Origin: Mytilus trossulus
Lineage: Eukaryota
Reading direction: 5' to 3'
DNA: 64,000 nucleotides
Assembly: GCF_036588685.1 (NCBI RefSeq)
Contig: NC_086380.1
Span: 64,790,001 to 64,854,000, forward strand
Under the pieces are notes generated by a model. The model ran no database searches, was not told the origin of the DNA, and saw nothing but the letters and a program-made list of their open reading frames with translations. Position numbers and translations under genes: made by a program. Shown here in pieces: positions 7,481-53,138 of the stretch (the first letter of the stretch is position 1; every line of letters starts with the position of its first letter).

Positions 7481-8909
7481 GTTTGTACTAACAAACGTAA
7501 AAGGACAAACTGTAGACGCATTTTTAGCAAGTGCATAGTTTGTCAAAGCTATGTAAACTTTGCAAATGTATGTAAGAAATAAATGATCCAAACATCTGCG
7601 CTCTTAACCTTTTGCATCGTTTCTGTTACAAAGAAATGCACTCAGAATAATATTTAAAATTAACAGTACAAGAAATAAAATGTACGGGTCAAAAACCAGA
7701 GTAAGAGTGTTCGAATAACACATTATTACTAATAGAATTAGCCCCACCACATTCTATATTTGCCTGTTTCTAAGTCAGGAGCCTGTTATTCAATGGTTGT
7801 CGTTTATTACATTGTAACAAATTTGTTTTCGTTTATTATTTTGTTCAAAAATTACTTTGGGTTCATCAATTTACATGGATACTAATTTTCGTGGATAGAG
7901 AATAATTTGCATTTTGAGTGAAATTTTCGTGTATATACCACATTCTGCAAACACCCATGCACGATGCTAATTCCTGGGAACACAACATATTTGTTTTGAG
8001 GAAGTACATATGCTTTTGTAATGTTTTCAAACATTGAAGTTGCATGTGTATTCATGGACCTATCATTTTTTTTTAAATTCAGATTTATTCCAATGACCCG
8101 CCGCATTAATCTTATGTGCATTCATGTTTTTTTTCTTCTAGCTTTTAACCCATTATCTGGCATATTACTCGACTGATCTGACGTGGCTGCAGTTGTGTAC
8201 CTCCCGCACAACTAAACGGACGCCCCACCTTTACAAAGAGTTTACTGCTGGTTGAAGGAAGACAAATGATGACCATACTTTCATTTCCCAGTAACCATTG
8301 AGGATAAGACATAACATGACTACTGATTACGTTCCTGACCCGTAACAGGCTCATAATTGTGTGGCAGAGTTATACTATATATGTTTTAATCGTAACCCTC
8401 CAATTTGAGATCATCTGGATTAGTGAACGAAAATGGTACATGATTTTAATTTCAAATTTAAACAAGCGTTCTTATTTTGCTGTCGCGTGTTTTAATTCAA
8501 AAAGCTACATGAAATGTATTTATCTTTTTGTTTTACAATTTTAGGAATTTCTTTTGTAATGTCAATTATTGATGAAATTAAGTTGAAATTGACCCTTATG
8601 TTCCACTGATTTTTAAGCGGTTGAGAAATTAACATATCTCCAAACAATTTACAGATGTTCCATTATCTGGTCTTGCAAAAAAAGGTTGTTTTATATACAG
8701 CCTGTAGTATAATGTTATGTATTATCTTCTTTTGACGCTTATAGAATGTGCATATGCACAATTTTTTCCATTTCCTGTCCTAGTTTATTACCTAAACATT
8801 ATTTTACTACCTCATAAAATATCAAAATGTCATGTTGTATTTAATCAATTTAAACGCCAAAAACTAATTATATCTCACAAAGAGAATTAAAATAAAGTCA
8901 TTGCAATAC

Positions 8910-9101
8910 GTATTTGAAATATATCGGGGTTTGTTAAAAGAAGAACATAATATTTGAACTAGCATACGTGTACAATGTCACTAGATTTATAAATTTAGAA
9001 TAGGTATTTAAAATATATAGGGTTTTGTTTTAAAGAAGAACATTATATTTGAACTTAACTTAACGTACGTGTACAATGCCACAAGATTTATAATTTAGAA
9101 A
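8910..9101. repeat. Tandem duplication, 2 x ~95 bp
   Basis: GTATTT.AAATATAT.GGG...AAAGAAGAACAT.ATATTTGAACT...TACGTGTACAATG.CAC.AGATTTATAA occurs twice. Confidence 0.75.
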
Positions 9102-12100
9102 TTGATAAAATAATAATAGATAATATCGTTGAGAAATGTTTTGCAAGGGATGGCCAAATTTATAAAACACGGAAAAATATACATTACATGTACACCATTA
9201 ATTTTGATATCTTTTGTATATCAGATTAAACTTTCAATAGCAAACTCAGAGTTTAGTGGACATTAAATTGTAAAAGGATTGTTCGAATACAAACATTAGA
9301 TACGTAAAATCAATATCCTGACGGTTTTATGACATAGTAAATATTTAGAACAAAAAAAAATTAAAAAAAATAATAGTGTATTTTTAATCAAGAATGGTAT
9401 CAGAGTTCTGATGCAAATTTCTTTAATTGGAATAATTTATAACTTAATGAAAAAACTAATGTTAAAATATAATAAAACGCCTTAGAGCTAAAGTCAAACA
9501 ACTTGAAATTGATATTGACAATTTGATATAATTCGTCCGATATAGTTCAACATCAATCTGTTCCTAATAAAAAAAAAATGATTAAACAATCTCGAAATGA
9601 ATCCTATATCACCAAAAAATTATAAACGAAAAACGAAAAGAAGAATTTGCTTATATACTACTGGGAACTATTTGATAAATGGTCATTCAAAACTTGAAAG
9701 ATACTCCTTGAATTAAAGTGAAATGCAACAATAGTTTTCGATTTCATTAATCGAATAAGACGATCATATTATTCATGAACTGAATAAGTGTCTCATGATA
9801 TGCAGGTTTAACCTGCCACGCCAATCCATAACCATTTAAAATAAACAATTTGGAATAGAAAAACATTGGTATAAATACATACCAGATGGCAATTGACTTA
9901 ACTTAAGATTAACACCGCGAAACACGTACAAAATGAGATAGGAAACATACTCATTGTATATCCGAGGCAACTATGCGATATTGGCCGAAAAAATACTTGG
10001 TTTAAATTATACGTCATCTTTTTTTTATACTATGTAATTTCATAGTTAAAATAGTCAAACAAAAAAAAACTTTTGAGGAATATGGCCCGCTTAACATTGA
10101 AAAAATAAATTAATTAAGTCAAAATGTTCATTGACGTGTCTTGCATTGTTAAAACAACAACTGACAATTGTTTGACTAATTGTGTATGCTTGATGTTATT
10201 TATGATTTATTATTTATCAATTTCGGTAAATATGAATTCATAATTTGATTTCTATTTCTTACCTTTTTTATGCATTTAAATTGATTTTATATCGACTTCT
10301 TACAAGCAACATCAACATTAGAAAATTTGCTTCATCGCTGGCGTATGTTTTGAAGTTTTATGTTCCCTTTACAATGTTCTGTGTTCACTCATATTAATAG
10401 TAAATTCTCAATTTGTCCATACTTTCCATAGCATTGTATGTGCTAGTAATCGTTAACGGTACGTAATTATCTTACCTAGTCATTGATATTTTTAAAAAAT
10501 AAAAAGGTCATGTTTATTTAAATAATATATATTTACGTGGATTTTAACTCACAAGTAGATTATTTGTTGGCACATGCAAAGGTATGCCCGTACTTTTTAA
10601 AAACCTTTTTTTTTTTAAATAGGTCAATAAATTACGAAACCAAGCAATGTTTCCCTACCGGTTTATGTAACTTGAGGGATGATAACGAATTTAATCAATG
10701 TCTTTAATGGATTGGTTTACTTGTTAACCTAGATACGGTATGTGTAAATTAAAATGTTCAAGATACCATTAATAAATGATTATAATCATTTTTTATTTTG
10801 TTAAGAATTATATAAATTAACAAGAATAAATAGAATAAAAAATACAATTGTTCAGAGAACGATAGAAGGTCTTTTCAAATCAATTTTATAAATAATTAAT
10901 GAGAAGGCATTTCAGTATACTACAAAATATTTTTGGCGTCCACGCATAGGTTTCTTCATACTGATTCATTAGATAAATGTTCCATTATATCTTTGCCTGT
11001 TATAAGGGAGATAATTGTCAATTCCCTGTAAAAAATGTCACTAAATAGCTTTTTTTTTAACCCTGATTGCCAAAGTATATGGTATTTATATACTGTTGCC
11101 TGTAATATGACAGATCTTGATGTTGAGATCTTAATAAACATGTTTAACCCCGCCTCATTATTGCGCCTGTCCCAAGTCAAGACCCTCTAGCCTTTGTTTC
11201 TCTTGTATGATTTTAAATTTCGGTTTCTTTTGTATATTTTAGAGATTAGTATGACGTCCAGTATCACTGAACAAGTATACATATTTGTTTAGAGGCAAGC
11301 TGAAGCAAGCCTCCTCGCTGCTTTGAAGACCCATTGGTAGACTTCGGCTGCTGTCTGCTCTTTGGTTTGGTTGTTGTTTTATTTGACAAATTTCCATTTA
11401 CATCTTTATTACGTTTACATATTTGAAAAATATTTAGTTTTTTGGTACTTTTTCTATGAAATAAGTACTAAATATATACTCCCGGTTTACTCAAGGTCAC
11501 TTCCTTATTGAAAGGTCACATGGCAACCAACACTTTGGACACTTTTGCTCTTTCAAGTACCGAGGTGGGGTACTAATAGATCAACCTTAAATTAAATCAT
11601 TTCAGGTCCGATAATTCCTTAAAGATGATAATAGGACAACATTTTGCAATAGTTCTTATATTAAAAGTGACACAGAAGATATTGGAACAAGAAAAAACTC
11701 TACATTTTGAATTTGGCCTTGACCTTTGACCTTGACATAGTTTTCTATTCTTTGAACCAAGGCCATCAAATCAACAAACCATTGGTCTTTGTTACTTTTG
11801 ATTCACCAAGAGCAAATACATATCACTTATTTCAAAGTGAGCAATTTGATAAAATAAATTTATCGCTTTCTTTTATTGTTACGGATGAGATCTTATAACA
11901 AAGAAAACAGTGTTTTGGGAGATAACTGTTACAAAGAAAAGGTCTTCGACTAAACAGGTTTAATCTCAAAAGCGCAATTGCTGTTCCATATAATATGCAA
12001 AAAATCTAAGCAACAGAAATCTAGTTTTGAAATTTGTCAAAAGAATAAATAAATTAATCAGAACAAATACAACAGGTCTTCAAATAGAAAAGTGGAAAGA

Positions 12101-12340
12101 CATAAACACACTTATACACATGTATCTAATTAAACAATTGTCATTAATCCAATAACAACGTACTATTGTTCGAATGTGTTAACATTTCATTGTTTTTACT
12201 TACTTAAAACATTGAGTAAAAAACTTCACATTAACAAAAACACATTATGTGTAACAATTTTTGAAAAGAAAATTAAAAAGATAACATTTTCGGTATTATT
12301 GTCTTATATCTAAAAACAAAGGAAAAACAATTTCATTAGT

Positions 12341-36400: not shown

Positions 36401-37726
36401 CATAATATGATTATTGAAATAGTATCGATCGTACATCTTATCTGATTTTAGACAATTACATCATAAGGATTGCATAAAACTCTGTGAAACATTCAAAATA
36501 AATTCATATGCATACATTTCAAAATATATAAAGTAAAATTCAGGAAACAATAAAACAGTTCATCTTCAAGAATTTTATAAAAGCAGTATATTGATAACTT
36601 TGACATTTAGTGCTATTGTTTAGGGGGACAACTAATTTAACATTGTATAGTTACTATATCAGTCCTTTTCGTGTATAAAGTCCAACTTTTGTATATGCTC
36701 AAGGGGTTAACGAAGGATACATGTTTTACGTAACAAAGGGTTGGACGTTGCACAATCCTCCTCCTTACTAACCCGGGCTTTATTATTACTTTACAAATTA
36801 GTTTATTTGTAAGGTAGGGCGTGAACAATTACTTTTATTGAATATTGTGATAGAAATTTACTTTCTTCGAATAAGTGTTAAAAATTCTGTTGAATATTTC
36901 TTTACATATTGAGTACAAGTTTAAGTTTAACAATATATTACTCAAATATTTGTTTAAATCCACAAATTACAGGGTTTACAGTTTTGATTGCAACTGTGAA
37001 AAGGTTATATTTGAAAGGTAACAAGATCAAAATTTGGTATTTGCACCAAACGCCCGTTGAGTCTACAAAAAACTCATCAGTGTCCCGTAAATCGAGGGGC
37101 ATTAATTACTCTTTTAAAAATATTTAAGCGGTACTGATTTTCGAAATTGTTCGAGTCATTGCTGATATAAACCTATGATAATAATTTGATAAAAATCTTA
37201 CAAATATTGTGCATGCGAGAGGGCTTTTAATGAAATGTTTCCAAGGGGAATAACTCTTTATAAAATTCTAAGATTATTGAACTTTTCCGAGATTTTGTTG
37301 ATTTAAACCTACTTGTGAATTTAAATTGACAATCTGAGACGAAGTGTGCATATGAGACCGCTAACAATGTAATTACTTATATATTAAAAAATATATACAT
37401 TGTTGATCGGTACTGATCGTCGACATTTTCCACGACAATGATGATATTAGCCTAGTTTGATATGAGTTTTATAAAGATCTGTCAAACATTTTATATAAGA
37501 TAGAACGTTAACAAGGTTGGACAGACAAGCAGATAGACATATTGACTGACAACTAGTATGTACATTACTCCAGCAAAGCATCTCGATTAACAATCGTTTA
37601 CATATTACATTCCATAGTTTTGAATTATAATATGTATTTTTTGTTGATTTGTACTAGATTCAGTAAAAAATCGTATAAAATTTTTTACGACTTATTAGGT
37701 AAAACTAATATTACTATCATAATTAA

Positions 37727-37753
37727 GAGCCAATCCGCCAGAAAACCATGCAA
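37727..37753 (+). repeat. Left terminal inverted repeat of the Sola3-like element
   Basis: GAGCCAATCCGCCAGAAAACCATGCAA immediately after TTAA. Confidence 0.92.
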
Positions 37754-38503
37754 TATTCAGAAAATCGTCCAAATCGACAATCACAACTTGACAAATTTTT
37801 ATATACCATATCAATCCTTGACATAAAATAAAAAAAATTGGCCACTTAATTTTCGCCAGAATCGCATCTATTTTTAGTAACAGCCTCATTTGCATAATTA
37901 TGTAAATTCATTATAAAACCAATGAAAAATCCAACTTTTAATGCCTTTTAAGAACTACCCAAAAGCATATTAAATGGGGTAGTTGAGTTTTTAGAGTAAT
38001 GTCAGGTGGAACCCTTTCATTTTCCTATGTAATGGTCAATACAAATGAAAATTTAAACGATTTGGCACTTTGCCAGGAGCACGGACACAAAGGCGGGTTT
38101 TTTCATACCTGAATTTACATGGTTTTCATTTGCTTGTAACTTGCAAGACCTATTCCAGATATGTTTGCAACTTATATCAGTTTGAACTATGGGTATGATT
38201 TATTACAAAACAAAATATTAAGCTTGGCAAATGACTATTATATGTTTATTTTTACCTTGGAAGATTGGTAATTTTAGTCCCCTATTGACAAATTTTGATT
38301 TCATTTTAATTGAATTCTAAACACAATTGGAAATAAAATGACACATTTAATCATTTGGAAAAGTCAAATAAAGTAACTAAAACATGTAAATAAGAAGTGT
38401 TTGTACCGCAAGTGCAAAAGTCACTACATTGTCTGGAACTAGTGAGTCATCTTTTATGCTTTTCTGTGGACTTATCTCCCTTGGGTAAAGTCTCCACTCC
38501 AAA

Positions 38504-41500
38504 ATGTCAGCTTCCAGTGATGGTTTGACAGACGACATTTACAGTGAAGTTTGTGACTTTTCCTATCTTGGTGGAGGATGTGGGATATCCCATCACTATT
38601 CATCTTCACCCAATACACTCTTTAAAGTATATGAATGCACCAAACCTACTACTATTCACCTCAAACGTCTGAATAGTAGTGAAAGCTGTGATTTTCCAGA
38701 AGGGCTACTTATCCTGTATAGGACTGGTATTTTTACAATAGATGCAACAACAACTCAGCTTAGCATATGTCCTAAGCACAGGGACTTCTATGGTATCCAT
38801 TGGAAAAATAAGAGTGCCCGATGTCAACATCCAGACCACCCCTCTTCCAGCAAAGCCAAGGCTGACCGAGGATCTTCACCTTTGTTGTGCAAGCAGAACT
38901 GGCTGTATACCCGACAAATTATTCCCGTAGGAACAGGTAAAAATCTGACAGGCAATATTCATTTATTTTCTCATAGTCTGTAAGTCAATCTGAAATTAGG
39001 GGACCAATATTTTATACCTAGTTTAAAAAAAAGGGGGGGGGTGATGTTGATATTTTTTACACCTGTTTCTAAAACATCTTTTTTATTCATTTCCTATGGT
39101 TAGGAGTAAACAAATAATATCACTTTGAAATAATTTCATCTGTCTTGGTCAGTAAAGGCAGAAAGGGGACAACCTTTTGATTCCGAAAAAGGGAAGGGGA
39201 ATTAGAATAGTCAAAATATTTATCATGGTTATATATATCCACACCAGCTACATGTAAGCACAGAATACTCATTTTCAAGCTTAACAAGGTTACAACTAGT
39301 ACTGTAAACCATACAGCCTTCAACAATGAGCACATCCCATACAGCATAGTCAGCTATTACCTCATTTCAACATACATGTACTGTACTGTACTGATATCCT
39401 AGATATAGGAAGATGTGGTGTGAGTGCCAATGAAACAACTTCCAAACTACATCCAAATAACAATTTAAAAAAAGTAAACCATTATAGATCAATGTACGGC
39501 CTTCAACATGGAGCCTTGGCTCACACCGAACAACAAGCTATAAAGGACCCCAAAATTACTAGTGTAAAACCATTCAAACAGGAAAACCAATGGTCTAATC
39601 TATATATAAAAAAACAAGAAACGAGAAAATACCCTACATTTCCTGTTTTGTTGACTTTGCTTTGACTTATGTCTTATACATGTATATTTCATAAACAAGG
39701 AACACAGATTTTTTTTCTTTCATAGTTATACATATTTTGTTTGTAGGACTTTGCAAGCAATGCTCAATAAAGATGAAGAATTTTGTTAAAAGTGACAAGA
39801 CACAGGTCAAACTAAATATAGAAGAAGATGTTGGTAAGATATACTTTAAACTTTCTAATTTAACGGTTCGTTAGATATATATGATAACCATGATAACCAT
39901 ACAAGTAAATGAAATAACTTACATTAAATTACCTTATTACATGTACAAAAATGTATGTACATTGGATTCTAAGGAATAAATGTCATTAGCGCATACTTAC
40001 AATTTTCTTCCGATCAAATTGCTTGAATTTGTCTTTTTATTTTCATAGTACATACTTTTTCCGTGTACTAAGTAACTACGCATCAATGACCACAAGGGTA
40101 AGATTTCATTTTATTGTAATCAAGATATTGAAATAAAAATTGCTACTGACTATTTTGTAGAAAAAGTTGTGTTCCAAATTAAACTAGATAGTTTGTAATT
40201 AGTTTTCAAATTATTTTTTGAACAGGCTTCTATTTAATCTTTGGATTTAAAAATATTTTTGACGATTATAAAATTCTTTCATTTATATAAAGCGTAATAA
40301 ATATGGCACTTTATACCTTGATTAGAGAACAATGCCTTCTAAAATTGTAATCATTTATTTTCCTTGCAATTTCTGTGTACCCAAAAAAAGAGTGAACCAT
40401 GAAACCTTGTGAAAAGAAGTTAAAGCAATTTGATCTATTTTGTCATGAATTGATTGAATTTTGGTTACTTAATGACCAGTGACAGATATTTCATGCATTT
40501 AAACTAATATTTCATGCATGTAAACTATCAACTAAACCACCTATGGGCACATACCAGGGGCAGATCCATCTATTTTTAAAAGAGGTTCCATCCGAAGATA
40601 AAGGGGGAGGGGTCCAACTGTATGTCCCCATTCAAAAATATTGATAATGCCAAAATTACAAAGCCAATATTAAACCAAATTTAGGCTAAAACCTAATTTG
40701 TGGTACTTTAGTTGGCTGCTCCAATACATGCCCAAAATTTGAAAGGTTTTACTGCCTCCTGGAAATATATATAAAGTATCATATTTTATTCCCCAGCCAA
40801 TGAGAAATTTTAAATGGCTACTTATAGACTTATATTAGGAAAAATAGGGATGAATATTTTCACACTTTAGTGTAAATTTGAATTTTTCAGAATTGTTTGA
40901 GAGATTGTGTGGGAGCATTTCAAGTATCCATGAAGATAAGGAAGATACAGATTTAGGTAATTTTTTTAAGTTGAAAGGGTGTTTTCTAAAAATGACTTCT
41001 ACATGTTAAACTGAACTAAGTGCAGAGGTAGATTTTAGGGGGGGGGGGGCAGGCCCCTGGTCCCCCCTTTTGAGAAAAAATTTGGTTGATTATATAGGGA
41101 ATCACTGAAGCATGAAAGAAGTGGGCCCCATCTTAGGCAGCCAGTGGGCCCCCACTTATGAAAATTTCTTCATCCGCCGCTGTAGTGTTAAAAGGACAGT
41201 AACTATCTTTTCAAAATGACTGTCACTGCTTCCAAGTCACTACTAACACTAAATGATGATGGCATGACAGATTTCTTCACTCTTTTTATCACATTTCTCT
41301 CAATTAACAAATTGAACAGTAATGTATGCAGTATTACAAGCACAAACAATCAAAAAGTTTAAGAACAAGAGGAATCCTGAAACAAAGTCACACACACATA
41401 ATGACAACTCAAAAAAAGAAATACTGATGACTCAAAATAAAGATAAATAAGACATTTAAGAAAGGCAGGCTTATGAAACAGTTATTGATTTTTTTTAAGC

Positions 41501-44500
41501 CTTCCAAATTTGATTATAAGTGGAATGCTATGAAATAATACCACATGAATGACAAGGTTCTATAATAGAAAAAGAAGGTTGGGGTTATGGCCCCTACAGT
41601 TTAAAACTAAGGCAAAAAAAATCTTCTTATACTTTAGAAACAGCCAATTTCTTAACAAGTTTTAATCAGGTTTAATTTGAAGTCTTAAATTCTTGTTTTT
41701 TAATCTGCTAAATCTAAGATTTTAGATTAAAATTTAAATTTAGATATTGTCCTCATCTTGAATTTGTCCACAATCTTGACATGTTGCAAAATGATCCAAA
41801 ATTTAATTTTGTGATGTATGATTTCAACAAAAATTTAATTCTTGATGTATAATGTACAGAATATAAAGGATTATTTCAGTTATTGATCTTTTTGACATTG
41901 GTCCTGTTTTCAAATTGGTCCGTATTTCAAAGTTCTAACTTGGTTTAATTTCCATGAGGTACAAAATGGCAAACATATAGGTATGAAATAACGTACATGT
42001 TAATCTTCCATGAAATAAGAAATGGTATACAAGTTGATATGTCATAAGGTATGTATTGGTCTAGGAACAATTTTTACCAAAAAAAAGAAAATGTAACCTA
42101 ACAACGTTTCAACCTTTATTTTGACCTCCCCACTTTTTTAGCTTTGGTCAGGAAACTTTATTTACTGCATCAGCTTACACTAAAAAAAATATTTCATATC
42201 AGTCATGCGTGTTTGCTTGTACATATAATATAATAAAAAAAAAAATATGGAATAATTGTCAATAAGACAAGTCTCCACCAGATACCAAATGATATGGTAG
42301 TGAAGCTAGTGGCTACAATGCAGTCTTCAACAATGAGGTAGACTATACCCCATAGTCAGCTATAAAAGGTTTTAATATAAAGATTTAAAACAATTAAAAC
42401 AATTAAACTCATGTCTGGTGTATATTATTTAAGGAATGACTGTAATATTTTTTCTGTATATGAAGAAATAACATTAAAAATTTGGTGCACACTGAATAAC
42501 ATGTGTAGTTGGTTATTTAACAGTGTGCACCGCATTTTTAGCTGACCTGGCCTAAAATGAAAGTGGGAGTTCCAGGTGAAAGTTTTTGGTCAAGGTAGTT
42601 TTTGATGAAGCTGAAGTCCAATCAACTTGAGACTTAGTACACCTGTTGCATATGATATGATCTTTCTAATTGCAAAGCCAAAGTAGACTTTTGACCCCAA
42701 TTTCACAGTCCATTGAACATTGAAAATGAAAGTAGGAGTTTCAGGTTAAATTTTTTGGTCAAGGTAGTTTTTGATGAAATTGAAGTCATATCATCTTGAA
42801 ACTTAGTATACATGAGTTGCTGCCTCTAAATTGGTAATTTTAAGGAAATTTTACTGTTTTTGGTTATTATCTTGAATATTATTATAGATGGAGATAAACT
42901 GTAAACAGCAATAATGTTCAGCAAAGTAAGATTTACAAATAAGTCAACATGACCAAAATGTTCAGTTGACCCCTTTATGAGTTATTGCCCTTTATAGTCA
43001 ATTTTTAACCATTTTTCGTAAATCTCTTACAAAAATTTTCTCCTCTGAAACTACCTGTTCAAATTATCCAAACTTGGCCACAATCATCTTTGCTGTATGA
43101 AGTTTAAATAATGTGTCCGGTGACCCAGCATCAAACCAAGATGGCCGCCACGGCTAAAAATAGAACATGGAGGTTAAATGCAGTTTTTGGTTATTACTCA
43201 AAAACCAAAGCATTAAGAGCAAATCTGACAAGGGGTAAAATTGTTTATCTGGTCAAGATCTATCTGCCCTGAAATTTTAAGATGAATGGGACAACCCGTT
43301 GTTGGATTGCTGCCCCTGAATTGGTAGTTTTAAGGACATTTTGCTGTTTTTGGATATTATCTTGAATATTATTATGGATAGAGATAAACTGTAAACGGCA
43401 AAAATGGTCAGCAAAGTAAGATGTACAAATAACTTAACAGGGCCAAAATGGTCAATTGACCCCTTTAGAAGTTATTGCCCTTTATAGTCAATTTTTAACC
43501 ATTTTTTGTAAATCTTAGTTGACTTTTACAAAAATCTTCTCCTCTGAAACTACCAGGCCAAATTTAACCAAACATAGCCAGAATCATTATTAGGCTATTT
43601 AGTCTAAAAATTGTGTTTTGTGACTGGGCAAACCAACCAAGATGGCCACTACGGCTAAAAATATAACATAGGGGTAAAATGCAGTTTTTGGTTTATAACT
43701 CAAAAACCAAAGCATTTAGAGCAAATCTGATAAGGGGTAAAATTGTTTATCTGGTCAAGATCTATCTGCCCTGAAATTTTTAGATGAATCGGACAACTCG
43801 TTGTAAGGGTGCTGCCCCTAAAATGGTAATTTTAAGGAAATTTTGCTGTTTTTGGTTATTATCTTGAATATTATTATAGATAGAGATAAACTGTAAACAG
43901 CAATAATGTACAGCATTTTAAGACTAAAAAATAAGTCAAAATGACCAAAATGGACAATTGACCCCCTAAGAAGTTATTGTCCTTTATAATAATTTTTTTT
44001 ACAATTTTCATAAAATTTGTAAATTTTTACTAACATTTCCACTGAAACTACAGGACAAGTTCATTATAGATAGAGATAATTGTAAGCAGCAAGACTGTTC
44101 AGTAAAGTAAGATGTACAAACACATCACAATCACCTAAACACAATTTTGTCATGAACTGCCTGCTTCCTTTGTTAAATTCACATGTCCCAAGGTGAGCGA
44201 CACAGGCTCTTTAGAGCCTCTAGTTTATGTTATTTCGAATAGACAGAAAAATTATTACAGTCATTTCTTAGGATTTAATTCTAAATTCCATTTTAAACCG
44301 TAGAAAAACATGAAAAAACGTTGATGACATCATGGTCACATGACTTAATTATGTGTATGGCATGTATGGGCTCATAACAAAATAACGTCAGCCAATCAGA
44401 AGAAGCGTTACATTCAAAATTAAATTATATAAATATGTTTTGTTTTTTACAGATCTAGACTCACAGTTATCTTTTTTGTCGACAACAACGTTAACTGAGC

Positions 44501-47500
44501 TTTCACAGCAGTCGACATCAGATTGGGAGGCTGATAATGCTTCTGGAAGAGACAAATTCAACAGGGCCATGAATATTCTCGGCAATGGAAAGTTTCCAAC
44601 TTTAAAACACCAATTAAAGCTTCCTTGGGATGATGTCTCAAAAAGTACAAAGGCAATGTATTTGAAGTTTACCTCTGATGTTGTTAATTTGATCATTCAA
44701 TATATTGCACCTGGGCAAGAAAACAAAATTATGGCAGACTTAAGTGAGAAATATATGTATCTCAATGATGACAATCAGACAACACATGATGATATGACCA
44801 AAGCACTCATACAAGCATATTTGGACCAAAATAACAGTCAAACTCAAATTCAAATTCTTTCCTTGTTTGTTCAAAAATTTACCAAACAGAAGCTAATTGA
44901 ATTAATTCCAGGACTTACTATGTCAAAAATTGACAGAGCTAGGAAACATGCTAATTTGGAAAAACCTGGACAAATGATAAATTCTCCTAGGATATACAGA
45001 ATGCGATTAAGTCATCCTCAACTCATGCATTTCATTGAGTTTATTTCTAGCCCATCTTACCATCAAGCAGTTGGATATGGATCAAAAACTCTTCAGCTTT
45101 CATCTGGTGTTGAAATGAAAATTCCGAAGGTAGTTCGAAGCATTATTTCATCAAGACTCATAAAGGCATACATGGCTTACTGTAAAGACCAAGATTATGA
45201 TACATTTTCAAGATCAACATTATATAACATTCTTAATGTCTGTATTGCATCTCAGAAAAAAAATCTACATGGCTTAGACAACACCACAGCTGATGGTATG
45301 AAAGCAATGGACACATTGACTGATATCATCAAGAAATTACAGTTGTTTGGACTAGAAGAGGAAAAAGTGGAAAAACTTAAAAATATCTTTGCATGTGCCA
45401 ACCAACATTTAAAATTTGAAATAAAGGGTCATCTAGCCACATCTTCAACTTGTTTAGATCACTGTACCACATTTAGCCTCAGTGACTCAAAATCCACTCA
45501 ATTTCGTTCAACTTGTGCTCATGAACATTCAGAAGGTTGTACCAAGTGCAGTATTATAGATAAGTCACTACTAGAATTATCAGATACATTCCAAAACATG
45601 AATTCCATCCCGGCAGAAATAGTAGATGAAATAGATCATGACTTATCACGAGCACAAGAGCAGATATTGACATGGAAGGCACATTGTGTCAGAACAGTTC
45701 ACCAAGATCAAGCTAAACAAACAGTGCTTAGTCATTTAAAACCTCATCAGGCCCTTATAGTAATGGACTGGGCTATGAAGTTTTTACCTGTGAGACACAG
45801 AGAAGCCCAAAGTGACTTTTTTGGTAAAAAGGGAGTAAGCTGGCATGTTTCGTCGGTTGTCACACTTGATATTGAGGCTGAACCTGAATTTAAGACGAAC
45901 TTTAATGTACACACTCTTGTGCACATTCTTGAGTTGGGCAATCAAGGATGGTTTTCTGTAGCTCACATAATAACTGACCTGCTACAGAAATTACCACTTA
46001 TATTACCTTTGGTAACTGAAATCTTTCTAAAGAGCGACAACGCTGGATGTTACCATTGTGTGCCATTGATTTCTTACATCCAAAATATCAATGTAAATGG
46101 AGGCTTGCCAGTTAAAATTCTGCAATACAACTTTAGTGAAGCACAGTCTGGCAAAGATATATGTGATGCCAAAACATCTCACTGCAAGATGCATATATTG
46201 AGGTATGTTTGTAATATCTTGTTAAAATATCTTCTATAATCATGATAATCATGGCAATACTGTAATTTGATGACATTTTTAAAACAATTTTGTAATCATA
46301 TGATTATGAATACTGCAATTGTTTTAGAAAACATGGAAAAAAGACTTCCCATTTTAAATATAATGATTAAATGACTTAAGACAATCCTGTCAAAATCATG
46401 AAATAATCATTCATTAGAGATATAAGAAGATGTGGTATGAGTGCCAATGAGATAAATCTCCAGCCAAGTCACAATTAGTAAAAGTAAACATTAGTCATAT
46501 GTCATAGTACGGTCTTAAACACAGAGCCTTGGCTCACACCAAACAGCAAGCTATAACAATGTATAAAGGGCCTTAAAAATTACTAGTTTAAAACCATTCA
46601 AACTGGGAAACCAACAATTTAATCTAGTATATAATTAGAAACAAGAAGCACTTATGAACTACATCAACACATGACAACTGCTGATTCAGAATATATATAC
46701 ATGTACATGTATATGCACTATTTTTGTTATATGAAGTTACCGTACTCGCTTAAATCATTTGCTAATCTCTGGAAAAAACATTAGTTATATAATCAGGTTA
46801 ATATTTATAACACTCTTACATGTATTAGGAGATATATATTCCAATTTTTCAATACACATTTGTTAAAGGTCCTATTAATATTTTACAGTTCTGCCAACAT
46901 GACCAAGGACCATAGGACAAACTTCTTTTTATTTTCCTCACCAACAAAGTTCTGGCTCACTAAAAAAAAGCCTTGCTCATACAATGAATGCATTTTTGTT
47001 TTGTTTTTTAGGTACTCTGGTGAGGGACATGATGTTTTGTCTGCAGAAGATATGTCAACTGCCTTAAACTCAAACGGAGGTGTTATAGGGGTTTTCAATG
47101 CTGTGGTTGCAATTGATCAGAATCATCAGACCAAGACAAAAACCAAAATACCCAACATTAGTGCAATGAACAATTTTGAGTTCGACAGTGAAGGTGTTAA
47201 AGTGAGGCGTGCCTATGGAATAGGAAATGGCAATTTCATACCAAACCTTCAGTTTAAGGACAACAAACTCATGGAAGGTTTTCAGGTAAACTTAGTGAAT
47301 TTATGAAGAAACATGTGATAAATGTCCATGATATAAGTACCAAGTACATTTTTAAATTGAAAAATCGATCTGATAACTTTAGAAATAAGAGGATTGAGTT
47401 ATATTATACAACACTCAACCAGATACCAAGTTATTTAAAAGTTAGTAACTACATCATATAGCTCATCATACAATCTTCAACAATGAGTAAAGACCATACA

Positions 47501-49406
47501 ACATTAGTGAGAAATAAAATCTCAAATTGACAAATCTAAAATTAGCAGCCTTATGTATGTATAAAACTAAAGATGAAAATCAAATTTTATTTATACAAAA
47601 AAGGCACACATGGAATGTGGCAGTGGCTAGACCAGTTAATAAAAATAAACTATGCTAACAGAAAAGGAATATACTCATCTAATTGATCATGTTGATCCAA
47701 AGCAAATTTAAACCCTAGCAAAAAAACAAAAGTCACATGTTACAGATCTGATAGTTCTCTGAGTTAATATAAGTTAATTTTTGAACTATTACACAAACAA
47801 TGTGTTTAATCATGTTAATACTACGTACAAAAATATTCATCATATAAATGATATGAATACAAAAAAGATAGATGTTTATGCGCCTGTCGTAGAGGAGGGG
47901 TCATTACTTTTCAGCAATGTCTGTCTATACCTTCATAGACCTGTAGGCCAAAAATGTCATTTTCTGTTCTCTAACTTGAGTTAACCTAATGTTTTGAAGC
48001 TTATATACAATGTTTATTACAACAAAACGCAGATCAAGTATAAATTTTGGTGACATCACTTTCAACATTCTAGAGTAACGCACCTTTACAAAAGTAAAAT
48101 TTGCTGAGTTTACATTTCTGTTCTCTAACTTAATTAGATATAGGAAGATGTGGTGTGAGTGCCAATGAGACCACTCTCCATCCAAATAACAATTTAAAAA
48201 TTAAACCATTATAGGTTTAAGTACGGCCTTCAACACGGAGCCTTGGCTCACACCGAACAACAAGCTATAATTTGCCCCAAAATTACTAGTGTAAAACCAT
48301 TCAAACAGGAAAACCAAACCAAATGTTTTGAAACTTATGCTCGTAGCTTATAAGTACCAATTTGGATAGGCACTGTTTCTCTTCTTCGTTTATCATTTTT
48401 ATGTCCCATTGTGAACACACATGTGGAATATATATTGCTGCAGAATAATAAAATTGAGAATGGAAATGGGGAATGTGTCAAAGAGACAACAACCCGACCA
48501 AATAAAAAAAACAACAGCAGAAGGTCACCAACAGGTCTTCAATGTAGCGAGAAATTCCCGCACCCGGAGGCTTCCTTCAGCTGGCCCCTCAACAAATATA
48601 TACTAGTTCAGTGGTAATATAGTTTTTTCATAATTTACCTTTTTTTGTAGGTAATTATTCCATTTTCAAATTTTGTTGCGGACCATCATGGGAGAGTTGT
48701 ACTTGCAAGGAATAATATTGATGTTGAACATGAAAATATGGGCAATGATAATGACACTGAAAATAATGGTAATGAGAATGTCACTGAAACTGTGGAGAAT
48801 GAGATGGAAGAAGATGTGAGTAATGATGGTTTATTTGCGTGTCCAGATCAAAGTTGCACCAAGGTGTTTACAAAACCTCATTTCCTAGAAGCACATATAG
48901 TAATTGGAAATCATGTGTATTCAACTAGTGAGAATAGTTACGATTCTGTCAAATTGATTTGGGCACAACAATGTGAGGCAGTTGACAGAGAACACAAAGT
49001 TCTCATACAATCGGTTTCTTCAATCAATATGAATGTCAATGAAGGATGGGCTCTGAAACTGAACAAACCTTTTAAAAGATTCACCAAAAAGGTAAAAGAC
49101 TTTCTCTTTGATATATATGTAAAGTGTGAAAGTTCAGGGAGAAGACCAAATTTTGATACATTAGCAACTGAACTCAAGACAACAAGACATGAGAATGATG
49201 GCACCAAAATGTTCACACGGGAAGAATGGCTATCATCATCACAAATACGCAGTCTTTTTGCTAATTTTGTCAGGCTTGGTGCTGAAACTTCTTTAAAATC
49301 AGAAGATACTGCTGTGATAGAAAATGTTTTAGAGGAAATCGATTCACTTGAATATCACAACAATATGACAGAATTGGCAACCGATGTTGTGCAGCAGTTT
49401 CTGTAG
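38504..49406 (+). CDS. Sola3-like DDD transposase, 6 exons: join(38504..38936,39747..39833,40891..40956,44453..46202,47012..47285,48651..49406), 3366 nt, ~1121 aa
   Basis: All introns are GT-AG with compatible phases (1,1,1,2,0) and the joined frame has no stop. Junctions rebuild plausible motifs (IIPVGT|GLCKQC, HILR|YSGEGHDV). Candidate catalytic Asp in VMDWAMKF (45766-68), KSDNAGCYH (46036-38) and FSEAQSGKDICD (46165-67). Cys/His clusters at the N-terminus and at CLDHC...CAHEH...CTKC. C-terminal C2H2 finger CPDQSCTKVFTKPHFLEAHIVIGNH. Short exon 3 is the least certain. Confidence 0.85.
41023..41182. mobile_element. Short GC-rich MITE with near-perfect 5-bp TSD, in transposase intron 3
   Basis: CAGAGGTAGAT...ATCCGCCGCTG flanked by AAGTG / TAGTG. 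Confidence 0.6.
42428..44430. repeat. Palindromic (foldback) repeat interrupted by the HINE
   Basis: Left arm AAGGAATGACTGTAATATTTTTTCTGT...AAATAACAT...GGTGCACACTG pairs with CAGTGTGCACC (42521-31) and, after the insertion, ATGTTATTTC...ACAGAAAAATTATTACAGTCATTTCTT (44227-44268). The right boundary is approximate. Confidence 0.65.
42540..44224 (+). mobile_element. Non-autonomous Helentron-type element (HINE/DINE-1-like) with internal tandem repeats, inside transposase intron 3
   Basis: Sub-terminal inverted pair GCTGACCT (42541-48) / AGGTGAGC (44191-98). 3' hairpin AGGCTCT-tt-AGAGCCT (44204-19). T-rich flanks. ~490-500-bp unit repeated ~2.5x (starts near 42819, 43309, 43811). It splits a palindromic host repeat. 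Confidence 0.75.
48448..48617 (+). repeat. Family B repeat, truncated copy in transposase intron 5
   Basis: Nearly identical to 12341-12505. Confidence 0.8.
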
Positions 49407-51743
49407 ATGTTCATGTGTGCATGTTCATAATGCTCTATTTGGTGTATTGTATTTTGTTGAATAACTATGTAATATTTCATTTCAAAGATACATGTACTGA
49501 TATTGCAACTGTTTGCCTGTTCTGACATACGATTTGGTATGCTTGATTTCATAAAAAAAAGACATTCCTTTTAACAAATTTCAAAATGACTGCCTTAATA
49601 TGTAAGTCATGTAAGTGGTACATTTATGTGGAGAAAAATGTTTTGCTCTTGATGTTCTCCAAGATTTTTTTTTAAAAAGTGATATGAAATATCCATTTTA
49701 CTATCATAACTTTTGAAGCAATGCATGCAGATATATACTGAACTAAGTTCTTTTTCCATGTTTTTCTTTATGTTGATTACGAATAAATTTAACAGATAAA
49801 TTGACAAATGTGAATAGATAAAGCCACAATCATTTTTTTTCTTTTAATTTTCCATGGATTCCAAGTTATGAATTAAAGTTTTCCCTCACAGTTGTTGAAT
49901 AATTTAAATGTTTTGAATTGTGCTTTTAAGAACAAGTAATTACTTTTTAACCTTCCTCATTATGCACATTTGTTTACATCATGTTTTTCCCCTTGCACTT
50001 TCACTGTGTAGGCGACAAAGGTCTAACAAGAGGTCATTGTTAAGGTCAATGCATATAGAAAGACAATATTTTAATAGAAGTTCAACTATGAAGATTTTAA
50101 TTGATATTATAAAGAATGTTCTTTTACTAGAATGTAAACCTACTCTTGATGTTATTGTATAGTAAAAATTAACCATTGAAGCATAAAAAACATTTTTTTT
50201 TTTATTTTGAAGTACAGTTATCATAACAATTTAAACTTTTCATTCAAAATTCTTTATAAATTTTGCACCAGTATTGTAGACTTAGAAATTTGTTAATGTA
50301 TGATTTTAATAGGAGAATGTTTTGTATATGTCATGAAATAAAAAGGCATTGAGTTAGGGTATTTTACTTATTTGAGCCATGGCTGCTTTAAAATAGAGTA
50401 TAAGGATGATTTTCAGTGAAAAGAAAATATAGGATAAGAATTATAATAAGGTGTTATAAAGCATGTTTTATGTGATGGAAATATGCAGTGTCTGTGAATA
50501 TAAATGTTGTATGCAATATGTGTAATGTTACAACATATAAAGTGTTTTACTTGTCTTTTATGTATTTTTTGGGGATGTTTTCAAACATACATTTTCATCC
50601 TAAGTGTGTATTGACATCATTGCCAAGAAACATTGTTAGCTTACTAAGTGTCTGTCAAAATTATCTCTCTATTATAATGTTGCTGTTGTTAGTCTTTTTT
50701 TATCATTATCTTGATAACAAAAGAAGAAGCGTTCTTCATATATATTTAAATATAAACTATCAACATAACATGGTATAAACACATCAATAAATTTTTGAAA
50801 AATTGGTAATTTTATCTTCCATTAATTGTCCCTGATATGATTGAATCTACCATTGCTTTTGAACAACTATATCAATATATACTAGAATAAATTGCATTAA
50901 TGGTTAGTAGGAACTGTTCTTTTACAGTCTGAACTTTTACTTAATTGTTTAAATATTAAATCTCTTTTAAAGTTGTTGCTCTGAAAATGTGTGTTTTTAT
51001 CTGCTTTTAGTGCATAATTTGTTAATTAAAGGTATTCTGCTCCTATGAGCCTCTTCATTTATGATGAATTATATTGTTCTTTTGTTTGATTATTTGCTTA
51101 AAGCATTAAATTAAACATGAATTATTCTTTTCAATTTGTTGTTATACTTATTTATAAGTCCAGCTCCAATATTATGTCAGTAGTTACAAACTAGATGGCA
51201 AAATTGAGAAAATTTGAATATGCAGGTTACCCCATTTTGATTTGGCATATACCAGATACCAACATTATTTGCCGAGCTTAATATTTTTTTTGATTGGGTA
51301 TATATAGTTATACTTTGCAAGCAAATATGTTGTTTTACAATAATAAACGGGTCTTGGAGTATTTTGGCTCTGAAAGATGACCAAAATCAGCCATTTTGGA
51401 CATGAGGCTAAACGAGACATATTGAAACGGATAGATTATACATACACGTAATAGACAGCATTGTTATTTTTATGCATTCTTACACCTAATGTGATGTTTT
51501 ACTAGGAACAACTATCAAAAAATAATTATTGTTGCTATTTTTTTTTATTTTACCTGCAAAATATGCCAAAAAAGGCTTATTTTTGCTGTTTTCGAGCAAT
51601 TTCATCTATTTAAAGATGGTGGTCCAAAAAATTCAGATCGGTTCAAAATTTTCCAAAAAAAATTTGTGAGGTTATTTACATTACTAAGGTGCACCAATGT
51701 GCCAAATATGAACTCATTTGGCAAAATTGGCATTCGGACGGTT

Positions 51744-51770
51744 TTGCATGGTTTTCTGGCAGATTGGCTC
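51744..51770 (-). repeat. Right terminal inverted repeat of the Sola3-like element
   Basis: TTGCATGGTTTTCTGGCAGATTGGCTC immediately before TTAA; 1 mismatch to the left TIR. Confidence 0.92.
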
Positions 51771-52863
51771 TTAAGTTAACAAAAAATAAAAATAAATCAA
51801 AGAACAATTAGCATTTTTTTTTATTTATTTAGAGGAAAATGTCAACAATGTCAATACACTTGATATTTGTATTGATATTTATTGATTACGGACATACTGG
51901 TAATAAGTTATTTTCTATCAGTCTTTAATTGTAAAAAAAAACATTACAGAAACAAAAACCAAACGCGTGAAATTTATCTAAATATACTGAATATTGCTCC
52001 TAGAACTAAACATGGTAACATGAATTCGCGTACGTAACAGATAAAACAATTACAAAGAATATAAGAAGGCTCAAAATATCTACAGTAGAAACCCATCTAT
52101 ATATCTGTGACACGCCAATATATATCGTACAATTTTCAAAATAACGCACACCTGCCCTACACATTTTCTTTTTCTAAAACCAATAAAATCATTTTCATTT
52201 GCAATAGTGAACACAAGCTTTAACTTTTTTTAAGTCAGTAAGACACCTCCATATCAAAATCAACAAAACATTTAAGAAATCAAAATAAGTAATATGTGTA
52301 TTTATTTTCAAGCTGTTTTGTAGACTTATAAAATGAAATGATAAAAAGTAAAGTTCATCCGTTATCAAAGGAACGTTTTTCAAAAAGTAGATAAAAGAAA
52401 GACTATAAACTATCATGAATGGAAACGAATAAGGCCAACTGGTTTGAAAACATGAAGATTCTTTTTGTATTTTAATGGTTTATTATAGAATTAAACACAT
52501 TCTTTTCTAAAGGTTATTCATGTGTAAACCGGTGCGATTAACTCCCAAACAAAAGTCCAAAGGAAAAATGTGTTTAATCCTTATAATTCTTCAACAAAAC
52601 ATCTGCGATTTTTAGTTCACATATACAGCATTTGTTTATGTAGATAATGGTGAACTTGTTTAATAGCTAACTAAACATCTTCCTTGTATGACAACCGCAT
52701 CCAATTCCTTTATATTGACAACGAGATGTGAAGAAAAAAAAACACATACTAGGTCAATTTTCAAAATAGGGGTACAACAGACAACATTGTGTTATAATCC
52801 TAATCACTGCAAAAAATACAAATGTGTAACTCAGGTGTACAAAAAGGCATATATAATATACAA

Positions 52864-53138
52864 ATAGAAATAGGAAGATGTGGTGTGAGTGCCAATGAGA
52901 CAACTCTCCATCCAAGTAACAATTTAAAATCATTATAGGTTAAAGTACGGCCTTCAACACGGAGCCTTGGCTCACACCGAACAAGAAGCTATAAAGGGCA
53001 CCAAAATTACTAGTGTAAAACCATTCAAACGCGAAAACCAACGGTCTTATCTATATAAACAAAACGAGAAACGAGAAACACGTATATATTACATAAACAA
53101 ACGACAAATACTGTACATCAGATTCCTGACTTAGGACA
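52864..53138 (+). repeat. Family A2 repeat (ATAGGAAGATGTGGTGTGAGTGCCAATGAGACAACTCTCCATCC...CCTTGGCTCACACCGAAC)
   Basis: Copies also at 39400-39629, 46417-46684 and 48136-48316 (all in transposase introns) and ~34270-34503(-). Confidence 0.8.

Follow-up and report, generated by a model that had tools for sequence, protein, structure and literature searches.

The stretch of DNA analysed here, referred to as the window, comprises 64,000 nucleotides of the mussel Mytilus trossulus (contig NC_086380.1, positions 64,790,001 to 64,854,000 of the forward strand). At positions 37727-51770 it holds a 14.0-kb transposable element with TTAA flanking both ends, GAG...CTC termini, and left and right terminal inverted repeats (TIRs) identical at 26 of 27 positions. 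Six exons with GT-AG introns join into 1,121 codons with zero internal stops, and the 1,121-amino-acid transposase encoded by them is identical to the M. trossulus gene model P0126. An earlier note on this DNA had described, inward of the TIRs, a series of inverted motifs at matching offsets of the two ends, and had proposed that a long TIR was eroded except at functional sites whose spacing was preserved. All of these motifs, as well as the 27-bp TIR, were found at the positions given for them. The features of the element that are relevant to that proposal are the following.

37723..37726, no strand: left TTAA target duplication, kept in 100 X24 reads that run into unlike flanks.
37727..37753, plus strand: left 27-bp TIR, beginning GAGCCAATC..., with a GCCAG core at its positions 11-15.
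37727..38330, plus strand: left subterminal region, conserved over its full length in an older sister subfamily and modestly enriched for GCCA words.
37761..37796, plus strand: left TIR-adjacent block; its homologue on the right is 51716-51745, at a shift of 9 bp.
38212..38232, plus strand: left inner inverted repeat, 21 bp, with the core GCCAAGCTT at 38220-38228 on the minus strand.
38504..38936, plus strand: transposase exon 1, with the start codon and a Cys/His-rich N-terminal domain; homologous in the related locus L018.
39747..39833, plus strand: transposase exon 2.
40891..40956, plus strand: transposase exon 3.
44453..46202, plus strand: transposase exon 4, which codes for a helical region and the larger part of the RNase H-like core.
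47012..47285, plus strand: transposase exon 5.
48651..49406, plus strand: transposase exon 6, encoding a C2H2 zinc finger (residues ~932-955) and a predicted homeodomain-like domain (residues 1007-1087; 49059-49301).
51267..51287, minus strand: right inner inverted repeat, 21 bp, with the core GCCGAGCTT at 51271-51279 on the plus strand.
51716..51745, minus strand: right block beside the TIR, the same at 29 of 30 letters in 44 reads from other copies.
51744..51770, minus strand: right 27-bp TIR, mirror of the left one.
51771..51774, no strand: right TTAA target duplication.

Inward of the TIR, mirrored similarity exceeds chance in two blocks only, namely the block adjacent to the TIR and the inner 21-mer. 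The inner repeats are alike at 20 of 21 positions and start at 1-based offsets 486 (left) and 484 (right), so that the 20-mer pointed out earlier (19/20) is real and extends to 21 bp, with an analytic chance of ~1e-6 of arising within 5 bp of the mirror diagonal. The best mirrored 20-mer among 378 genomic control pairs reached 18 matches, and the whole 64-kb window contains only 2 matches to the 21-mer at up to 3 mismatches, where 0.04 were expected. The TIR-adjacent block, located at offsets 35-70 on the left and 26-55 on the right, holds the AAA.CGTCC.AAT motif that had been noticed just inside both TIRs, and its local alignment has a P of 0.0014 against 18,162 window controls. The remaining two motifs of the proposed series are as follows.

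37980..37985, plus strand: TAGTTG, mirrored at 51509-51514, at chance level.
38144..38150, plus strand: CAAGACC, mirrored at 51350-51356, at chance level.

These words do occur at mirrored places, but not beyond chance: near the mirror diagonal, exact words of at least 6 letters numbered 5 versus 2.2 expected (P 0.087) and those of at least 7 letters 1 versus 0.66 (P 0.48). CAAGACC and TAGTTG are what AT-rich DNA yields near a diagonal. In other copies the base at 38151 is C (13 of 14 X24 reads), which makes the mirror match of CAAGACC one base longer. Global alignment of offsets 28-600 of both ends was better than 300 of 300 shuffles (z 3.7) and than 607 of 608 genomic controls, but once the two anchors were left out (offsets 61-480) z fell to 1.4, with 32 of 300 shuffles equalling it. 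None of the six 70-bp blocks covering offsets 71-490 was significant in the mirror alignment, the lowest P being 0.08. The advantage over shuffled ends that the note had anticipated hence holds for the anchored alignment only, and its series of motifs with preserved spacing is reduced to the tip, the adjoining block and the inner 21-mer.

GCCA words are enriched three-fold inward of the TIRs, with 6 on the left and 6 on the right versus 2 expected (empirical P 0.03 for 4-mers). Enrichment of 5- and 6-mers in both ends was not significant, and the GCCA words of the two ends do not lie at mirror positions. No word of at least 8 letters is common to the TIR and the inner repeat, which share the GCCA-type core alone. 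The left end also contains, at 38060-38078, an inverted pair of TGGCA words separated by three bases; with the A that other copies have at 38069, 13 bp match the right end at offset 64, a place away from the mirror diagonal. A near-perfect 20-bp palindrome at 37889-37908 is built on the octamer-like word ATGCAAAT. The word is present in four of four end regions (window left, L018, L053 and L054), a result that is not significant (null 0.33), and an 11-bp version of the palindrome occurs in the L018 and L054 end regions, the word being common in the background.

Homologues of the transposase were found in mussels, oysters, lancelets, a ribbon worm and cnidarians. Exon 4 encodes the motifs DWAMK at residue 634, SDNAGCY at 723 and GKDICD at 762, and Asp634, Asp724, Asp764 and Asp767 are present in at least 90% of 51 homologues. 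Modelled residues 617-887 resemble integrase and mariner cores (best Z 10.6, root-mean-square deviation 3.2, 138 residues aligned), so the protein is predicted to carry a DDD triad in an RNase H-like fold, the third aspartate being Asp764 or Asp767. A Foldseek search with both models gave nothing at E 0.001, and an Atlas search with the transposase models returned unnamed eukaryotic clusters or nothing. The C2H2 zinc finger, located downstream of the catalytic core, gave weak Pfam and PDB matches. The three-helix domain at 1007-1087 models well, with a predicted local distance difference test (pLDDT) value of ~90 over model residues 91-150, and among its structure matches listed most are homeodomains or other helix-turn-helix domains on DNA, at Z 6-7. 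A weak match to the SAP domain, a possible DNA-binding module, was seen in 5 of 51 homologues (alignment A1), while Pfam gave none in the mussel protein. An extra exon guessed at 40049-40097 broke the reading frame and was dropped.

Residues 641-665 align ungapped with positions 17-41 of the published Sola3 profile (PMC5751038 supplement), matching 15 of 25 consensus letters with a hand-scored 43.9 bits. Profile positions 83-93 fall in register ahead of SDNA; the comparison covered ~50 of 131 positions, and was made with the Sola3 profile only. Sola3 elements target TTAA, have GAG...CTC ends and typically, although not universally, carry long near-identical TIRs. The mussel element has both the 4-bp TTAA duplication and the GAG...CTC termini, but its TIR measures 27 bp in place of a long near-identical one. 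In one report, Sola elements are described with 4-bp target duplications and TIRs of 11-1124 bp (PMC10741241), so that a TIR of 27 bp would not exclude Sola3. The profile match bears out the assignment made in the earlier note, and the element is a member of the Sola3 group of the Sola superfamily. The piggyBac Pfam domain DDE_Tnp_1_7 had no match in any of the 51 homologues; the element resembles piggyBac in layout only.

A 99.8% identical protein is encoded on a second chromosome-size record of M. trossulus, and proteins 97-99% identical in M. edulis and M. galloprovincialis. Four sequencing runs, chosen by shares of sampled words, were compared with the left 1.8 kb of the element only. In the raw reads of run X24 the TTAA was kept in 100 and the flanks beyond it agreed only to 0.46; therefore, these 100 junction reads with unlike flanks correspond to many insertion sites. 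Contigs with 0-3 differences had a depth several-fold that of the flank: in run X8, which may be the source sample, contigs with one difference had a depth of 102 over 38211-38592 and of 95 over 38694-39154, as compared with 21-23 for the flank of this site, contig depth being a rough guide only. Judged from these sequences the family is young, multi-copy and dispersed, and it presents the intact open reading frame and the near-identical copies expected of an autonomous transposon. Forty-four X24 reads depart from the left sequence at the TIR end, their next 30 letters matching the right end of the window at 29 of 30 positions. Because these reads from other copies carry the window-type right end, the asymmetry between left and right is a family-wide trait and does not reflect a decay of this copy.

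An older sister subfamily covers the full left 600 bp at ~81-87% identity and a depth of 14-35, which then drops to 0-4, and covers exon 1 in islands only, one of them with silent changes and a stop. The left spacer thus seems conserved at least as well as coding DNA, which argues against a freely drifting spacer, although the sister subfamily might be of chimeric origin. This conservation speaks against the proposal that the long TIR had eroded except at functional sites. A third type of end was seen among the loose ends at 37755, with the same TIR and a different continuation that still carries TCCAAATGCAAT, like the TIR-adjacent block; it likely represents a sister family. The left flank (37427-37666) has no coverage over 37427-37606 in three of the four runs, so that no empty site was observed; other mussels may lack the whole locus, not the element alone, or have a diverged version of it.

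Genome bins searched with the transposase profile yielded four loci on contigs of eukaryotic appearance. The prokaryote bins G001-G004 include contigs that bear this eukaryotic transposase family (L017-L020, L053-L056); of these bins, G001 contains many repeat-rich, intron-bearing contigs, and the transposase-bearing contigs in these bins look like host contamination. Locus L018 (G001, 14.8 kb) has a related intron-bearing transposase gene with stops, and its left end begins at a TTAA common to a second copy. Locus L053 (G001:C532, 13.5 kb) contains at 8307-12284 a complete non-autonomous element of 3.97 kb, flanked by TTAA at each end, which includes a transposase fragment belonging to the same family (E 3e-8) and has TIR arms of 1.4 kb, 97-99% alike outside and 81% inside. 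In L095, a second copy of this element, the inner part of one arm is lost. The 1.4-kb arms of L053 make a long-TIR ancestor of the mussel element plausible, which is a part of the erosion proposal that stands, whereas no residue of a long TIR was measurable at offsets 71-490. The tips of the relatives read GC(C/T)A(A/G) at positions 12-16, versus GCCAG at 11-15 in the window TIR. The long arms or ends of L018 and L053 gave no alignment with the mussel ends or with each other.

The core GCC(A/G)AGCTT occurs at exactly two sites of the 64-kb window, both being the mirror positions; at one site in L018, in the left end of an autonomous-type element, 1,124 bp inward from the tip and 250 bp upstream of the start codon; and at one site per TIR arm in L053, ~1,241 bp inside. 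As a 10-mer, it is the longest word common to the three ends (mussel element, L018 and L053). Since the inner repeat had been named beforehand, counting over all 21-mers of the window is a fair test: 218 of 63,979 (0.34%) hold such a three-way word, 725 (1.1%) when two further 3' regions without the word are counted, and 74 (0.12%) for a 13-mer plus a 10-mer as seen here. The shared 13-mer has a single occurrence in the 12 Mb of G001, inside the L053 TIR. The shared 10-mer has 9 occurrences in G001 versus 11 for a control, and 2 of the 9 are in these ends; the remaining 7 GCCAAGCTTA sites had no tie to Sola-like ends or transposase. The truncated ends L084, L095, L096 and L097, which stop or change before the expected place, were excluded from the counts. 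Of the related loci, L018 and L053 thus have the core of the inner site and the 3' regions of L054 and L055, which are putative termini, do not; its distance from the tip varies.

Searches elsewhere were negative. The TIR pattern had 0 matches in viral contigs and 16 in metagenomes, 16 of 16 attributable to chance and none continuing like a TIR. The transposase profile was confirmed in no viral contig, and among 88 genomes of the phylum of G001 it was found in G001 itself only. No curated Sola3 is listed in the bivalve library of PMC10294476, and no Sola3 sequence was present in the supplements of PMC9297572 or in 12 of 32 files of PMC8594854. Rfam gave no match.

These results suggest a reading to which we give an even chance: the 27-bp tip would be the likely site of binding and cutting, and the inner repeat a likely accessory transposase site that is not strictly required. 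As is established for the fold, and as in other cut-and-paste elements, the tips would be bound and cut by the transposase, and the predicted module of C-terminal zinc finger and homeodomain-like domain would read the inner repeat, whose occupancy would help to pair the ends of a long element. Both mussel ends would descend from a long TIR, the identity between left and right having been lost because each end was kept for its own job, the left one also preceding the gene start. The inner site is composed of a GC-rich half and a TTAAT half, and homeodomains prefer TAAT; such a composition would suit a zinc finger/homeodomain-like pair. That the inner 21-mer behaves like a constrained site is supported by the recurrence of its core in relatives. 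Moreover, in the mussel element no block except the tip is better conserved than the innermost one, while identity falls inward in L053, so that passive erosion would not be expected to give the mussel pattern. A further extension is tentative, and possible rather than probable: the 10-bp word would be a recognition site common to Sola3 transposons across distant animals, whose transposases are ~30% alike, and would be read in either orientation by the C-terminal zinc finger and homeodomain-like module, so that a kilobase-long TIR would be reducible to tip plus word.

Several observations weigh against an accessory site read by the transposase. An abundant derivative of ~1.78 kb in run X15 seems to be without the left inner site: one contig, at a depth of 34 versus 11 for full-type contigs, implies a left-end match only to offset 121, and a second, at a depth of 89, ends at offset 103, although a lone diverged 21-mer could escape detection in it. 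Hence, of the map of cis requirements drawn earlier, the constrained-like behaviour of the inner 21-mer is retained, but a derivative in which apparently just the first 121 bp of the left end persist speaks against an absolute requirement for it. Nor does variation among mussel copies give a clear sign that the 21-mer is conserved better than its surroundings, as 0 of the 27 differences listed fall in it versus 1.0 expected. The structural match to homeodomains is middling (Z below 8), with an unrelated protein in the top row, and Foldseek, Pfam and PDB sequence searches gave no homeodomain-like match for the C-terminal domain. Unlike the sites of Bari or Sleeping Beauty, the inner repeat is no copy of the TIR. 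As for the relatives, the core read inward has the opposite orientation in both, lies at varying distances from the tip (486, 1124 and 1241) and is lacking in the putative termini examined of L054 and L055 (3' regions); it is carried by no more than two independent relatives, and a single contaminated bin is the source of both. When random triplets were compared in an unbiased three-way test, 67 of 600 shared a word of at least 10 letters and 9 of 600 one with at least 4 G/C, this null including loci picked for the word.

The inner repeat might instead be the site of a host factor or a promoter element, with the transposase not its reader. The core precedes the start codon by 271 bp in the window and by 250 bp in L018, whereas it lies at varying distances from the tip; the core stays the same among elements whose transposases are ~30% identical and occurs in either orientation, as enhancer-type sites do, and GCCAA resembles a Nuclear Factor I half-site. 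A pure promoter role, however, gives no explanation for the right copy, which lies 1.86 kb past the stop codon and is kept at 20 of 21 positions amid unalignable DNA, and the transposase has spare predicted DNA-binding modules. We hold this explanation to be rather doubtful. Somewhat less credible, and in our view unlikely, is a neutral relic of a long TIR, in which a patch was recently homogenised by gene conversion or template switching and the relatives match by chance. Long TIRs do exist in the family, the mirror position would follow automatically from the pairing of the ends, a derivative without the left copy is present and the sharing across families rests on two of four end regions. 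But gene conversion would be unlikely to affect just one 21-bp patch lying 460 bp within unalignable DNA, the same patch holds the one word common to both relatives (P 0.001-0.01), and the inner offsets differ by 2 bp only, though the TIR-adjacent block is shifted by 9 bp.

Two other explanations fare worse. That a ladder of at least four preserved motifs reflects a long TIR eroded except at obligatory sites is very improbable: all the motifs do lie within 3 bp of the diagonal, the variant of other copies lengthens the CAAGACC match by one base and both ends have more GCCA words than expected (P 0.03), but the middle motifs are at chance level, no block between 71 and 490 aligns, the GCCA words are off the mirror positions, and the spacer itself is conserved among left ends. 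The inner repeats could also be the ends of a second TTAA-targeting element (TTAA plus an 11-bp TIR) that carried the gene into the palindromic middle of a 1-kb miniature element, given that each shows TTAA and then, inward, 11 bp matching at 10 of 11, and that removal of the inside would leave a perfect 16-bp palindrome. This possibility is largely refuted and would be the least probable of all, since contigs and reads of the sister subfamily cross the site (X1 record 4, X8 record 18; depth 19-24 before and 23-25 after), none of the loose ends listed has mixed flanks at the inner site, the transposase elements of the relatives end in tips like the outer TIR, and in the relatives the TTAA beside the core is not kept and is on the other side of the core.

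Apart from its gene, the element carries passengers, listed below.

39397..39613, plus strand: short interspersed repeat, a nested copy in an intron, with further copies at 46414-46626 and 48132-48340 and, outside the element, at 52862-53064.
42430..44270, no strand: nested 1.84-kb element in intron 3, with 32-bp inverted ends and ~500-bp internal repeats.

The second insert is flanked by TTAA/TTAG and resembles a non-autonomous element nested within another.

With an intact enzyme and two sharply defined candidate sites, short oligonucleotides would suffice to probe what Sola3 requires in cis. If tip and inner repeat act as proposed, they would define a minimal pair of ends for a young transposon, specific for TTAA and naturally mobile as a 14-kb unit, and a TTAA-specific enzyme moving large elements could serve as a tool. 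Should the inner word be shared across phyla, it would tell what the very long Sola3 TIRs carry and would provide, beyond Tc1/mariner, a further instance in which long TIRs were pared down to binding sites; should it be a matter of chance, the mussel family would be unremarkable, a young member of Sola3 whose TIR is short. A literature search, with Repbase and Dfam outside its scope, gave no description of Sola end architecture and no Sola transposition assay.

The combination of a short tip and a mirrored inner repeat is a layout that other superfamilies are known to have. With the Sola3 group the mussel element shares the profile match, the RNase H-like core with three aspartates and the 4-bp duplication, but where Sola3 elements typically have long TIRs it presents a 27-bp TIR, unlike subterminal regions and one mirrored inner repeat. 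The L053 element is alike in its TTAA on both sides, its GAGC.AAT tip, its transposase-family fragment and the same inner core, and differs in its 1.4-kb arms that are 81-99% alike, in being non-autonomous, and in the location of the core ~1,241 bp in and in the opposite orientation. In the inverted repeat/direct repeat arrangement an inner site lies at matching places in both ends, as seen here at offsets 486/484, and is a direct repeat of the outer transposase site, which is not the case in the mussel element. According to two papers on Bari1, a Tc1/mariner element of Drosophila, its long TIRs shrank to ~28 bp, the inner sites, which bind the transposase, were retained at their positions, and its miniature inverted-repeat transposable elements keep the outer site only (PMC4877112, PMC3828361). 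Both elements have a short TIR, inner sites at matching places and, apparently in the mussel case too, derivatives with only the outer site; nevertheless, Bari1 has three repeats of one 18-bp word within 250 bp, bound by the transposase, whereas the mussel element has one candidate site, unlike the tip and 485 bp in. For piggyBac of Trichoplusia ni, PMC7351741 describes an internal 19-bp repeat that differs from the tip and serves as binding site of the C-terminal domain; a second dimer, non-catalytic, is proposed to be held there. PiggyBac and the mussel element share the TTAA target, unlike ends and an internal inverted repeat distinct from the tip. The piggyBac repeat, contacted by a cross-brace zinc finger, is found no more than 63 bp from the tips and not equally far from each, while that of the mussel element is located ~485 bp in at equal distances, and its transposase, unrelated in sequence, would offer for the same task a C2H2 finger and a predicted homeodomain-like fold.

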